64,000 bases of DNA from Candidatus Bathyarchaeota archaeon (GCA_963726255.1 CAVSBL010000002.1:704001-768000), one strand, 5' to 3'. Positions 1 through 16,021 are shown, counted from the first letter of the stretch. The notes: generated from the letters alone by a model not told the origin. Numbers and translations: made by a program.

Positions 1-248
1 ATTCCCAAAATTGCACCCACCCCTGCAGAGATCACACTAAACAATACAAAACCGAACAAGAGGATGAGCACAACCATTTCTACCGTCAGCCCTAGAAGCT
101 TTACCACCGGTAGCTGCAAATCGAGTGTGGCCATGTACGTCAAGGTCAATTTACCATCCGACGCTAGAAACGAAACACCGTACTGCACCGTAGGGTACAG
201 AACACCTGCTACCACTCCAGACTTGATGCCCGAGGGACTATCCTTCAT
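1..248 (-). CDS. Membrane protein immediately downstream of the full-length Rhs gene (candidate immunity/partner), truncated by the window edge
   Basis: Not in the ORF track. Manual translation from ATG at 248: MKDSPSGIKSGVVAGVLYPTVQYGV...VVLILLFGFVLFSVISAGVGAILG. Paralogous to 7266..7787 (SAGIKAGLIAGLLYP...CAFLGAIAG). Starts 10 nt after the Rhs stop. Confidence 0.8.
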   Translation of the reverse strand, partial: MKDSPSGIKSGVVAGVLYPTVQYGVSFLASDGKLTLTYMATLDLQLPVVKLLGLTVEMVVLILLFGFVLFSVISAGVGAILG

Positions 249-258
249 GGATTCGCCT

Positions 259-3200
259 TCATTTGGGAGGGCAGCTTCCTCGTCCGAGCATTTCGAGCAG
301 GGTTCCTGTTACTACCAGGGAGAGGCCAACTCCGATCGTGATATATTCAACAACTTCGTACTCGGGCGCAAATTCCACGGGGAATCCGAATGGGCCCGGG
401 ATACTGGCTGGTAGGGGAGGACTAGGATTGATCGCGGCGTTGAAGATATTCCATCCAGTCGATACCATATTTTGCCCTGTTGTATAGGTCTCGCATGAGA
501 ATCGTGGTGTAACGATCCCGATAAAGCCCAATCCAGGGGTCGCTACGGTCCCGTAATTCAATGCTAGTAGTGCGCCGCGGGGGATGTGAACGTTCGTTGA
601 TGCTGCGGGGTCGGATGATGCTGTGTTGGCTGCTGCGCCAAACGTCATCCTAAGCCAAGCGCGGAATCGCATCGGGTGCGAATGGTGGCTCGAATACTCC
701 TCATAAGCGTCTTCAAGGTCTCGAAGCTCCTTGTCCAACTCTTCCCACGACCTTTCCGCCGAAGCGCCCGGAACGCGTTCTATGTCGTACGCGGCTTCTG
801 GAAGCTTCGCCCCGTCCGGGTCCACGTAGCGTTCAGGGTTGTTTAGGGCGTAGGTATAGCGGTTAAGCGATTGTGGGTTCAAGTAGTTCGCCTGCGCCAA
901 GTCCAAAGTCATGAACCTGCCGGATTGGCTGTCGTAGTACCTGTATCCGTAGTACGATAAGCCTGTGGCCACATCCAACTGTTTCCCAGTGAACTGGAAC
1001 ACCTCCGCTCCGGACGTGGCGTACGTGTTCCCGTAAGGCAGATACTTCGCGGAGAACACCGGCTGGCTCGCAGCCTGTGTTTCTAGTCGTACGCTTCCTA
1101 ACCGGTCTAGGTGGTAGAAACTGCTAACCCCCGCCTGAACTTTCCCAATTAGTAAGCCACCTGCGAAGACAATGTCACTCGTCAAACCCGTCGTCAAATC
1201 CTTCACGTAGCATGGATCCCACGAGCCGGCCTGGTAATCGTAAATCGTTGTGTCCGTAGCAGTGGTCTGCACCCTCCGCCCATCCCCATCATACAACGCC
1301 TGAAGGGCTGTTTGCCCGTTGAGCTGGACCTGTTTGAGGCGGTTCTCGTAATCGTACGTATAACTCCAAGAACTTGAGCCAGAGGTCTTGCTGACCGTGT
1401 TCCCATTATTGTCGTACGAGTAGCTTGTGGATCCTGCGGACATTAGCTTATTGTATGAACCGTACGAGTAGGTCGTGCCAGTACCGTTCACAACAGCGCT
1501 TAATCGATTTCCAACTTCGTCGTACGTGTAATCTAATGACCCGAACGGCCCGCTCGCACTTGTAAGCCTGTTCAGGTCGTCGTAACCATACGTTTCCTGA
1601 CCGTTGTTAACGCTTGTGGGGTTGCCGTTCGGGTCGTACGCGTAATTCAGATCGAGAAGCGTTGCGGTAGCGTTCCATGTGTGTATGCCTGTGATGCGCG
1701 CGAGTTGGTCGTATGAGTAAGCGGTTTGAACTCCATTCCCATAACTGATGGTGGCGGGTTGGTTGTTCTTGCGGTATGTGAGGGTGGCGGCATTGCCGAC
1801 GGTGGTAATGCGGTTAAGCGCGTCGTACTTGTAGCTCAGCACGTAGCCGTCAGGGTAGGTGAGTTGAATTAGGTTGCTTGCCGCATCATACTGGTAGCTT
1901 AACGTGTAAGCCTGGCCGTTTATGGTTCGTGACTCGGATAGGAGGCGGCTGCGGGGGTCGTAAGTGTAAGTTGTTGTGGCCGAGCTGTCGGTCATTTGAA
2001 CTCGGTTGCTGTCCTCGTCATAGGAATATTGAACTGTAGACGTGTCAGGGTAGGTTATCTTGGTCAACCGGTTGATCTCGTCATAAGTGTATGTTATCAG
2101 CGTGTTGTTCTGTGTTCTTCGGGAAACTAGGTTGCCAACATTGTCGTATGTTCGGTTTTCGAAGGTTGTGTCGGGGAATTTGGTCTGCACTAATCTGTTC
2201 AAATTATCATAGAAGTATGAGGTGATCTGATTCTTTGCGTCTGCAATTTGGAGTAGGTTGCCTACTGAATCGAAGGTATAGCTAGCATCGTAGCTTTGGC
2301 CGCCCACGTGTTCTGTGACGGTTACAAGGCGGTTCTGCCAGTCGTAATAGTAATCGGTCGGATGCCCCTTTTCGTCGAACGCGGTTACCTGGTTGGAGGC
2401 GTCGCTGTAAACCCACTGCTTGAAGGTTCCATCCGGATGATTCAGCGTAAGCATACGCCCGAAGAAATCGTATGTGTACGTCGTAACGTTACCGGTTGGG
2501 TCAGTGTAAGTTTTCACTTTATCATTCCAGTAGTAGGTGGAAAGTGCTGTTGAGTAGGGGGCACCGTTGGCATAGGTCTGCGTTTGAGTTAGTCGTCCAA
2601 GCCCGTCGAAATAGGATCGGGTATAGTTATTGTTCTCATCGTATGCCGTCATGATGTTGTTGACATCGTCGTACGATGTTCGGCGCTGAGCACGCACGCC
2701 CCCAATTGCAGGATAAGTAATCGTGGTTAGTCTGTCGATGGCGTCGTACCCATAATTCGTAACGTTCCCCGATGGTGATGTGACCTGTGTTCGATCACCC
2801 GTCGTAGAGTTGTACGCATAGCTTGTTGATAGAGTTGTTCCGGCCACATGTTCGTCTGCTTGCGTCAAATAGGCGTACTGGTAGGTTGAGGAGAACGTGT
2901 AATTCACGTAATGGCCATTCGCGTCTACTCTCGATACTCGGTTGCCATAGCCAGTGGTATCGTACGTGTACTTAGTGGTTACCCAGACGGTTCCATTCAG
3001 GCTGTTCTCCTGTAGTAGGTTTCCTGAGCTATCAAATTTGGAGTAGAGTGCTTCGCAGAAACCGTAGCCGACTCCGTTCGGAAACTCAACCACCGCGGCG
3101 ACACGGTCGTGTATGTTGTCGCCAACGTTGTTAGGGAAGAAATAGGTAGAGCAACCGTGCTGGGTCATATTGAAGTTGGTGCCGTAGAAATCAACGAAAT

Positions 3201-14880: not shown

Positions 14881-15001
14881 TCGCTCAACATTCCACAATG
14901 CAAGCGATTACTTTCTGAAGCCAACTGTAGAGTTAGAGTCGAAGGACGACAAAATTGGAAAATGAAAACGACGATTCTGGGTAAAGACTTGAAGTCTCGG
15001 A

Positions 15002-16021
15002 GTGGTCGGCATGGCTATTGTTGACGAGTCGCTATCTGTTCACGCGTTGTGGCGGACCGTGGCACGATGCCTGTTCCTCTTATTCATTGCAATTCTTTTG
15101 CTTTTTTCAATCCGGCCCACAAGTGCGCTAACCTACAATCTCCTGTTAGGTGCAAGTGGTGACAATGGATCATTTGGGAGCTTAGGTGTTCGAGCAGACA
15201 TGCGAACGCGTGTCTACACCGTGAACGCTCCCGATCTCGACGACAGCTTCTGGGTGGGCGCTACTCTACGCAATGGTTCAGGCATTCAGTTCGGTTACGA
15301 CATACCGGTTTCCGGAACTTATTGCATGAGCGGTAAGATTGAAGCCGGAGCCTCGTTCACGTGCAAGGGTGGCTCTGAAACAGTTAACGGCTCCCAGCTA
15401 GTTTGGTTTTGGCAATATTCGCCCGACATTAGCGTTATAGACGATTACTATTTTGGCACGGGGTTGCTCGGATCGACAATTTTGAACGGAACCTGGCATA
15501 CCTTTACGATTATGCCAGATTCACAAAACGCATGGGATTTCCTGCTTGACCACCACCAAGTCGCGAATGCAAGCCTTCCGATTTTGCAGTTAAGTTCCGC
15601 TTACTTTGTTGCCGAGAAGGTTACGTCCTCTCCAGCTCCAGGTCGATTAGGGCCGGTGGAATTTCGGAACCTAGCGTATTTGAAGGAAGACGGTTGGCAC
15701 CTAGCGACCGCATTAAACGCCATCGTGAACTGTCCTGGGAATCGAAGCTGCGTCCCTATTTCATACGGCGTGTCAGTGATAGGGCCTAACCACGTCATAG
15801 CTGGGACGTCGATACCTCAACCGAAAGACGGAGCCCTGCTGTGGAGTACTGGGACCGAGTCTACCGTGACCGCCTCCCTGCCAACAACCTCCTTCACGAG
15901 AAGTACGCTTCCAATAGCGCCCGAACTCTTCTACGGTGCGTTAGCTGCAGTCGTGGTTGCTGCGTTGTTGATGATTGAATTCGTCATTCTTCCCCGGCGA
16001 AGGCGAGGCAAGAAGCGCTAA
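15002..16021 (+). CDS. Exported, C-terminally anchored protein, paralog of 10101..11075, partner of cassette 5
   Basis: Signal peptide, FWVG..IQFGY..WFWQYSP..VAEK, GPVEFRNL.YLK.DGWH, TM and RRRRGKKR tail. Confidence 0.75.
   Translation: MVGMAIVDESLSVHALWRTVARCLFLLFIAILLLFSIRPTSALTYNLLLGASGDNGSFGSLGVRADMRTRVYTVNAPDLDDSFWVGATLRNGSGIQFGYDIPVSGTYCMSGKIEAGASFTCKGGSETVNGSQLVWFWQYSPDISVIDDYYFGTGLLGSTILNGTWHTFTIMPDSQNAWDFLLDHHQVANASLPILQLSSAYFVAEKVTSSPAPGRLGPVEFRNLAYLKEDGWHLATALNAIVNCPGNRSCVPISYGVSVIGPNHVIAGTSIPQPKDGALLWSTGTESTVTASLPTTSFTRSTLPIAPELFYGALAAVVVAALLMIEFVILPRRRRGKKR

Follow-up and report, generated by a model that had tools for sequence, protein, structure and literature searches.

Organization of the locus

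Here we analyse an Rhs locus at the left end of a 64,000-nucleotide stretch of DNA (hereafter the window) from a Candidatus Bathyarchaeota archaeon (GCA_963726255.1 CAVSBL010000002.1:704001-768000). One long Rhs (YD-repeat) gene, hereafter the main gene, lies on the minus strand (259-6425) and is followed by the gene of a putative immunity partner, p0, while beyond its start codon, across a spacer of 88 bp (6426-6513), five short cassettes (c1 to c5) and their partner genes lie on the plus strand in a head-to-head layout. The original prediction, made from the sequence alone, had described an archaeal Rhs polymorphic locus whose spare tips are stored inverted and upstream, unlike the usual order and 88 bp from the main gene, and had proposed that tips are exchanged by a reversible, shufflon-like switch. 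The description was borne out in its Rhs content (RHS repeats and the TIGR03696 core), its host (Bathyarchaeia, within the TACK archaea), its spacer and its layout; the working switch, as set out below, was not. The host genome (G000) is a metagenome-assembled genome (MAG) of 2.42 Mb in 5 contigs, 98.5% complete with a contamination estimate of 9.3%. The nearest relatives of the dehydrogenase flanking the locus (94, 86 and 84% amino acid (aa) identity) are all assigned to Candidatus Bathyarchaeia archaeon, and the window encodes TFIIB and an actin-fold protein; the archaeal identity of the host is based on these points. An archaeal SSU match was also obtained, but its control matched all 14 genomes and so it does not on its own tell the domains apart. 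A tblastn search of the genome with all parts of the island described here found no other Rhs locus.

From its N-terminus, the main gene encodes a hydrophobic signal or anchor, a region of about 800 aa with no Pfam or PDB sequence match, an Rhs shell, a core end and a variable tip (tip0, about 259-810, minus strand). The signal was recognized as one strong hydrophobic segment at residues 13-31, from hydropathy rather than from a signal-peptide predictor. In the sequence as given the gene falls into two minus-strand open reading frames (ORFs) in different frames, 3531-6425 (964 aa) and 259-3462 (1067 aa), which overlap as open frames from 3531 to about 3678. RHS_repeat (PF05593) is found in both (1.5e-15 and 4.5e-60, respectively); the second also contains the Rhs-associated core TIGR03696 (3.4e-18), and the gene matches TIGR01643 and, with E-values down to 3.4e-33 (8h8a), solved Rhs shells. 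The Pfam scan of the main gene found no PAAR or VgrG domain. Core-end motifs could be read in the translations as DPDGA, DPDGL, DSDGL and DPFGL, with a degenerate DLDGR in c2; a DPxG(L)-type motif directly before a variable tip is what we take to be the end of an Rhs core.

The split of the main gene was resolved with Logan contigs from four public sequencing runs of one study (X1 to X4), mapped on window positions 1-17000; these contigs have a depth of about 1-8x and are of a kind that drops rare variants, and X3 and X4 lack cover in places. An extra base behind 3535 is present in the contigs of X2 (5.8 of 5.8 depth) and X3 (2 of 2), and the contigs of X1 break exactly at 3535 with the same base at their loose end; X4 has no cover there. 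The base missing from the assembly is thus seen in all three runs that cover the site, and restores a single ORF of 2055 aa that the assembly splits by a 1-nt deletion at 3535/3536. Because the read contigs add this base, the population allele is an intact 2055-aa Rhs gene; the homologue of the main gene in L035, a metagenome contig discussed below, is a single ORF of 2035 aa. The prediction of one full-length, signal-bearing Rhs gene is therefore right for the organism, although the assembled letters show it split.

Downstream of the main gene and on the same strand, p0 occupies window positions 1-248 and extends past the left end of the window (full gene G000:C2:703775-704248, 157 aa). It contains three hydrophobic segments by hydropathy, and the Pfam scan assigned it to no family. 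On the opposite side, c1 (ORF 6514-7269, plus strand, with protein-level homology already from 6493) joins about 170 aa of core (TIGR03696, 2e-19; 74% aa identity to the main core) to a 79-aa tip. Its stop codon is overlapped by 4 nt by the start of p1 (7266-7787, plus), a membrane partner with three hydrophobic segments and weak homology to p0 (26.7% over 150 aa, E 2.7e-6). In c2 (7742-8467, plus; TIGR03696, 1.5e-19) the core is followed, behind the degenerate motif, by a 118-aa tip with a hydrophobic start, and its partner p2 (8458-9273, plus) belongs to the CPBP/Rce1-like intramembrane protease family (PF02517, 1.1e-17; seven hydrophobic segments). Cassette c3 (9354-10061, ORF 9372-10061, plus) retains the last 55 or so residues of the core (a partial TIGR03696 match, 1.3e-11) before a Thr/Ser-rich tip; it is a paralogue of c5, with which it has the direct repeats D2 and D5 in common. 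Its partner p3 (10101-11075, plus), a putative exported protein whose hydropathy points to a signal at the N-terminus and an anchor at the C-terminus, is a paralogue of p5 (55-56% aa identity), and a p3 homologue adjoins the orphan cassette of L035.

The fourth cassette departs from this pattern. c4 (11081-11641, plus) has no TIGR03696 match, and of the core only about 8 terminal residues are left. What it shares with the main gene lies inside the tip: c4 is paralogous to the N-terminal half of tip0 but ends in a C-terminus of its own (59% aa identity to main residues 877-985; 86% nucleotide identity over 223 nt). A small ORF of 98 aa behind it (11722-12018, plus; two hydrophobic segments and a weak holin-like Pfam match, E 0.018) is a possible partner. 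A membrane-anchored ORF of no known family (13409-13948, plus) precedes c5 (13955-14880, ORF 13987-14880, plus; TIGR03696, 3.2e-19), which consists of core and a Thr-rich tip ending in GLPGCPDPTIY and is followed by p5 (15002-16021, plus), a putative exported and anchored protein with an Atlas score of 0.92 to clusters of archaeal hypothetical proteins. Five cassette ORFs thus lie on the plus strand as had been predicted, though c4 lacks the core domain that all were said to carry, and hydropathy places a gene with hydrophobic segments behind each, in agreement with the membrane or exported partners that had been proposed.

These tips have few recognizable relatives. Tip0 and the tips of c1, c2, c3 and c5 match no Pfam family at E<=0.01, and in the Atlas the best score of the tips was 0.80, with no informative family. 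A search of 1.84 billion representative proteins with tip0 gave no real relative from any other genome, its three matches being the main gene's own protein, c4 (P0002) and a repetitive protein (P0003). A hydrophobic stretch closes several of the tips, and the partners are without exception membrane or exported proteins, including one of the CPBP family; this would fit membrane-directed toxins paired with membrane immunity proteins. Furthermore, a c5-type tip and a p5-type exported, anchored protein occur together both in L035 (17043-18808) and in the window (13987-16021), and thus form a conserved tip/partner pair of no known family.

Such an arrangement could also be explained if the cassettes were dead remnants of displaced tips, with no further use, and selection kept only the partners, a store of immunity genes whose divergent transcription would start in the spacer; orientation would then be irrelevant. 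The first available start codons of c1 to c5 are TTG, GTG, TTG, GTG and TTG (ATG in none of the five), an in-frame stop lies just 5' of the c1 homology, and the c2 core-end motif is degenerate. Furthermore, no long protein carrying the c1 or c5 tip was found among candidates of up to 2000 aa, a limit that a 2055-aa fusion would escape. However, all five frames are open through core fragment and tip, and the ratios of nonsynonymous to synonymous divergence (dN/dS) of cassette cores, tips and partners, at 0.10-0.34 (0.10 for the main gene and c1, 0.34 for c3 and c5, 0.23 for p3 and p5), are not near 1, which indicates purifying selection on cassettes and partners alike, with the reservation that the divergence may predate orphaning. 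Partner starts also overlap cassette stops, as in c1 and p1, suggesting that the pairs are or were co-translated. We regard a bank of immunity genes beside dead tips as an unlikely account of the locus, if the least unlikely of the alternatives considered here.

Divergence of the inverted core arms

Key to any exchange of tips are the tracts that the main gene shares with the cassettes in inverted orientation. The core-end arms of the main gene (811-1304, minus strand) are homologous to c1, c2, c3 and c5, and the arm homologous to c4 (612-834, minus) lies inside tip0. As inverted repeats, these were detected at 907-1304/6533-6930 (main and c1; 398 nt, 81%), 811-1181/13961-14331 (main and c5; 371 nt, 80%), 612-834/11105-11327 (main and c4; 223 nt, 86%) and 811-991/9359-9539 (main and c3; 181 nt, 80%). 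In gapless, in-frame alignment the arms are 81% identical to the main gene for c1 (398 nt), 74% for c2 (198 nt), 80% for c3 (181 nt), 86% for c4 (223 nt) and 82% for c5 (334 nt), with longest perfect runs of 27, fewer than 20, 20, 39 and 20 nt, respectively. Codon positions 1 and 2 are 86-97% identical, third positions 65-73% (44% in c2). The synonymous divergence (dS, Nei-Gojobori) between the main core end and c1 is 0.92; that of a flank duplicate of species-level age within the island (F and F', described below) is 0.41. The arms are thus old, with synonymous divergence near saturation, and not homogenized.

The original prediction had pointed to near-identical DNA between the main gene and the cassettes. 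The blocks are present, as a 54-bp block with one mismatch between the main gene and c1, made up of perfect runs of 27 and 26 nt, and a perfect 39-bp block between the main gene and c4; what did not stand is their significance. The block of 90-96% identity sits on the region encoding an invariant GLSYYGYRYYD motif, where c3 and c5 are likewise 90-93% identical to the main gene, and a Sawyer-type permutation test found no significant conversion tract for either the main-c1 pair (p=0.21, 0.91) or the main-c5 pair (p=0.27, 0.93). With c3 and c5 also high in this region and the main-c1 test not significant, the near-identical stretches do not go beyond what conservation of the sequence would produce.

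Because the arms are gapless and in frame, a crossover within them would fuse the Rhs body in frame to another tip and its partner and keep the old tip, as had been proposed. Only a crossover with c1, however, would flip the body alone; one with any of c2 to c5 would move the cassettes in between together with it, and those farther out would end up direct and downstream. No single recombination site is shared by all five: the c4 arm has no overlap with the c1 or c2 arm, and overlaps the c3 and c5 arms by only 24 nt.

The enzymes encoded by the genome point away from a dedicated switch. Neither PF00589 (tyrosine recombinases) nor PF00239 (serine recombinases), the two families searched, had a match anywhere in the genome at E<=0.001; in control genomes these profiles matched 14 of 14 and 12 of 14, respectively, PF00589 including all four archaeal controls. 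As had been noted for the window, no recombinase was found in the left flank, by eye, or, to the right of the island, among the 20 ORFs covered out of 30 with a length of at least 180 aa. RadA and the mismatch endonuclease NucS/EndoMS are both encoded; MutS was not found in the genome. NucS/EndoMS opposes recombination between diverged sequences.

Two observations on these genes may be added. The genome is without even a Xer-like PF00589 match although it is 98.5% complete, and radA (minus) and nucS/endoMS (plus) are divergent genes lying about 0.9 kb apart (G000:C2:336024-337943).

Island borders and history

The locus forms an island of about 16.5 kb that extends from C2:703601, its left border (C2:703600/703601) lying 400 bp left of the window, to window position 16074 (right border 16074/16075). 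Four species of the same genus (G021, G015, G004 and G014) have an empty site in which the end of a tRNA_bind gene abuts sequence from window 16075-16089, just before an acyl-CoA dehydrogenase gene, and the same empty site occurs in a contig of run X2 that is about 90% identical. An Rhs match is absent from all 22 other genomes of the genus. By these comparisons the island is species-specific. The sequence left of the window, in which further cassettes or a recombinase might have been looked for, holds only housekeeping genes beyond p0 (by eye, nuo subunits, triose-phosphate isomerase and aldolase); the 2-hydroxyacid dehydrogenase and tRNA_bind genes of this flank were confirmed by Pfam.

Within the island, between the c4 and c5 modules, lies an inverted copy of part of this flank (F', 629 bp, 12516-13144, minus strand), which comprises the 3' end of the 2-hydroxyacid dehydrogenase gene and the complete tRNA_bind gene (PF02826 and PF01588). 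It is 90.5% identical to the flank itself (F, C2:702973-703600), and has diverged as much as the orthologue of the neighbouring species; F, F' and the orthologue in G021 form a trichotomy (23, 25 and 28 informative sites). F' is either an old duplicate or an import with DNA of a third related lineage. Because the island holds an inverted, diverged copy of its own left flank, it is composite and has undergone at least one past event of inversion or transfer. If F' began as a direct copy, its present orientation could reflect an earlier crossover of the main-gene arm with that of c5.

Read support for the assembled arrangement

Since the layout comes from a long-read MAG, we considered whether the inverted arrangement could result from wrong joining at the core repeats. 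Single-base indels do occur in the assembly (3535 and 16326), and the contamination of the MAG is estimated at 9.3%. However, among the 32 of 136 contig pieces listed, short-read contigs from different runs bridge both arms, the spacer and both island borders in the order of the reference. For example, one contig of X1 spans tip0, arm and body (652-1945), X2 contigs span the spacer with the c1 arm and tip1 (6448-7151) and the right island border (15289-16384), and X3 contigs span the head-to-head junction (6349-6627) and the c3 arm (9338-10025). The repeats, at about 80% identity, are moreover too diverged to mislead an assembler. Because independent contigs bridge the reference configuration, mis-assembly of the inverted layout, which had been named beforehand as a possible source of error, is unlikely, and we regard it as by far the least credible of the explanations considered here.

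The same contigs bear on the alternative junctions that a working switch should produce. None was found at the core arms in the four runs, the reference arrangement alone being present, which at this shallow depth is a test of low power. Of the three joints listed, none lies at the arms: two represent the left flank F mapping onto F', and one the empty site of a relative. The joints 1/4 with 12519, considered as an inversion junction, were rejected, since they arise from the flank copy F, outside the mapped stretch, matching F'.

At the right of the mapped stretch, an additional base behind 16326 is present in contigs of X1, X2 and X4. In its called form (16416-17366) the acyl-CoA dehydrogenase ORF has no N-terminal domain, and an assembly indel has probably split this gene too. 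Single-base indel errors, as at 3535 and 16326, seem to be scattered through the assembly.

Orientation of the array in relatives

Of 401 genomes sampled from the class, 32 have the Rhs core domain, as do 4 of 401 from the phylum; G000 is counted in both. The only close relative found for the locus is L035, which is 55-65% identical at the aa level over the N-terminal region and Rhs body; a search with the N-terminal 964 aa found no relative among genome contigs, and L035 as the one locus in a metagenome scan. Here main gene, partner, c5-type orphan and a p3/p5-type partner follow one another on one strand, the orphan having the Thr-rich architecture and C-terminal PGCPDPTIY of c5. Twelve clusters with at least two core matches close together occur across the samples of class and phylum; 10 of them are likewise on one strand, and orphans lie downstream wherever a long ORF is present (G216, G221, G033, G025 and G104). 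No inverted upstream cassette was seen in the loci of five family relatives. A layout with orphans on the opposite strand, as in G000, where five cassettes lie on the 5' side of the main gene and past p0 there are only housekeeping genes, is thus uncommon among these relatives.

The two exceptions to the same-strand order are G000 itself and G239, a genome of another family of the class. In the latter (G239:C22:148900-154900; L061) a minus-strand Rhs remnant (149489-151389) faces plus-strand core-end cassettes (152921-153477 and 154476-154814). No full-length Rhs gene was found in this genome, the minus-strand Rhs being only a fragment. A literature search at the level of titles turned up no account of Rhs orphans in inverted orientation.

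Interpretation of the head-to-head layout

The switch that had been proposed would operate by homologous or homeologous recombination between the arms, at a frequency relevant within populations, and would provide toxin variation without loss. Geometry and reading frame permit it, with gapless arms; the cassettes and partners are intact and appear to be under purifying selection, RadA is present, and G239 offers a second head-to-head locus. The orientation of F' would be explained by a main-c5 arm crossover if F' was first a direct copy, and by inversion the locus would escape what direct recombination does in Salmonella, namely remove the main immunity gene (PMC3967940). Set against this are arms of 74-86% identity with perfect runs of at most 39 nt, a dS of about 0.9 and no homogenization (the main-c1 and main-c5 tests not being significant), the presence of NucS/EndoMS, which generally suppresses homeologous recombination, the lack of a PF00589 or PF00239 match in the genome and of a site common to all cassettes, the lack of an alternative junction in four runs (a weak test), and relatives that are canonical, with G239 retaining only a fragment on the minus strand. 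We therefore consider active, reversible switching improbable.

We instead think it probable that the locus is a canonical Rhs polymorphic-toxin array of main gene and orphans with novel tips, in which the main block or the array was inverted in the past and arm exchange, if it happens, is a rare event rather than a programmed switch. By analogy with known Rhs proteins, the 2055-aa product would be exported or anchored through its N-terminal hydrophobic segment, the region of about 800 aa may serve as its surface or targeting part, the YD-repeat shell would enclose tip0, and tip0 would be released by autoproteolysis at the core-end motif, with the membrane protein p0, encoded just downstream, protecting the producer. 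The five cassettes are orphan modules of core fragment and tip, each kept with a membrane or exported partner; their chief role would be that of an immunity-gene store, with now and then a tip drawn from them as a replacement. The simplest origin of the head-to-head layout would be one past inversion of the block of p0 and main gene, or of the array, in a direct locus of main gene followed by orphans. Recombination between the arms could exchange tips by inversion, and if so would be rare, evolutionary and RadA-driven. The toxin and immunity functions, the export route and a single block inversion are what we infer from the organization of the locus and its likeness to other systems.

Several points weigh against this account of a canonical array turned by a past inversion. 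No tip matches any known toxin family, which makes toxicity a matter of analogy; the presumed breakpoints carry no signature of a block inversion and have only 7-8-nt matches between them; and the inversion is argued from one distant relative, L035, in another genomic context. The five intact cassettes, all in one orientation facing the main gene, together with the second head-to-head locus in G239, would be compatible with a selected arrangement. Nominal conversion-like signals were also obtained, among nine pair tests, for main-c2 (p=0.0016) and c1-c5 (p=0.010), and the read test has very low power (contigs only, about 1-8x depth, one study).

These points bear on a further possibility, that the head-to-head layout is itself a selected, recombinase-independent answer to immunity loss, in which rare RadA-dependent flips between the inverted arms, by which no toxin or immunity gene is lost, are amplified by selection in competition and F' is the scar of a main-c5 crossover. 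We give this idea as little credence as active switching, and retain it mainly because F' could have been turned by such a crossover; if true, it would make the locus the first inversion-based polymorphic-toxin switch, in an archaeon, and would mean that a toxin can be varied with no dedicated recombinase and with immunity retained. As the evidence stands, an incidental rearrangement is the better account of the orientation.

Relation to known systems

Shufflons such as that of plasmid R64 (with Rci), and invertible hsdS or tail-fibre cassettes, depend on a dedicated tyrosine or serine recombinase acting at short, near-identical sites. The locus resembles them in placing inverted alternative C-terminal segments beside a constant 5' part, so that inversion would exchange the expressed C-terminus with no loss, but its repeats are long, diverged coding homology, and the genome has no PF00589 or PF00239 match. 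Bacillus WapA is a Sec-dependent Rhs/YD toxin with an export signal instead of PAAR or VgrG coupling. Our locus has in common with it a YD shell, a variable tip paired with an immunity gene (putative here) and an N-terminal export signal (putative here), whereas the N-terminal region of about 800 aa without Pfam or PDB match and the archaeal envelope set our system apart. Jackson et al. are said to have described, in 2009, C-terminal displacement arrays of Rhs genes in Enterobacteria. Those arrays, and the polymorphic toxin systems of a later study (PMC3482391), are like our locus in their conserved body, variable tips, standalone neighbouring cassettes and pairing with immunity genes; unlike the systems described there, the tips and partners here fall in no tested Tox or Imm family and the orientation of the array is opposite.

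The closest bacterial parallel is the rhs-main/rhs-CT-orphan locus of Salmonella Typhimurium LT2, which likewise comprises a full-length gene, a 5'-truncated core and tip orphan with an immunity gene, and a tract of core-end homology by which recombination can join the body to the orphan tip (PMC3967940). There the orphan is downstream and direct; the experimentally demonstrated recombination between main gene and orphan runs over 522 bp with 95% identity, and costs the main immunity gene unless a duplication of the locus comes first (PMC3967940). In contrast, we find five orphans, upstream and in inverted orientation, whose tracts of 181-398 nt are 74-86% identical, in an archaeal host and with no type VI secretion system context seen here. 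Nearer relatives, the L035, G216, G221, G033 and G025 loci, are like ours in having the same N-terminal region and Rhs body and a c5-type orphan with a p5-type partner (the last in L035); they differ in lying on one strand with orphans downstream, and L035 in having one orphan rather than five and another chromosomal context.

Zhang et al. 2012 (PMC3482391) call classical polymorphic toxin systems scarce in archaea, with a figure of about 15 of 225 genomes in their reply to a referee, and a citing paper (PMC8416519) describes those of archaea as predicted and not experimentally characterised. The present locus offers a clean and complete example in uncultured Bathyarchaeia, with one intact delivery gene, precise borders and an empty site in sister species, and its five stored tip/partner pairs without known relatives are a source of candidate archaeal toxin/immunity pairs, most likely membrane-directed.

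Other features of the window

Outside the island, two minus-strand ORFs of 794 and 387 aa (37659-40043 and 40312-41475) match no Pfam family at E<=1e-5. A plus-strand ORF of 489 aa (27491-28960) has an actin-fold match (PF00022, 5.5e-14), is possibly of the crenactin type, and adjoins an ORF of 222 aa without family. Farther to the right, adjacent full-length genes on the minus strand (58639-60714 and 60818-63121) encode H+-translocating pyrophosphatases (PF03030, 1e-242 and 3e-235).

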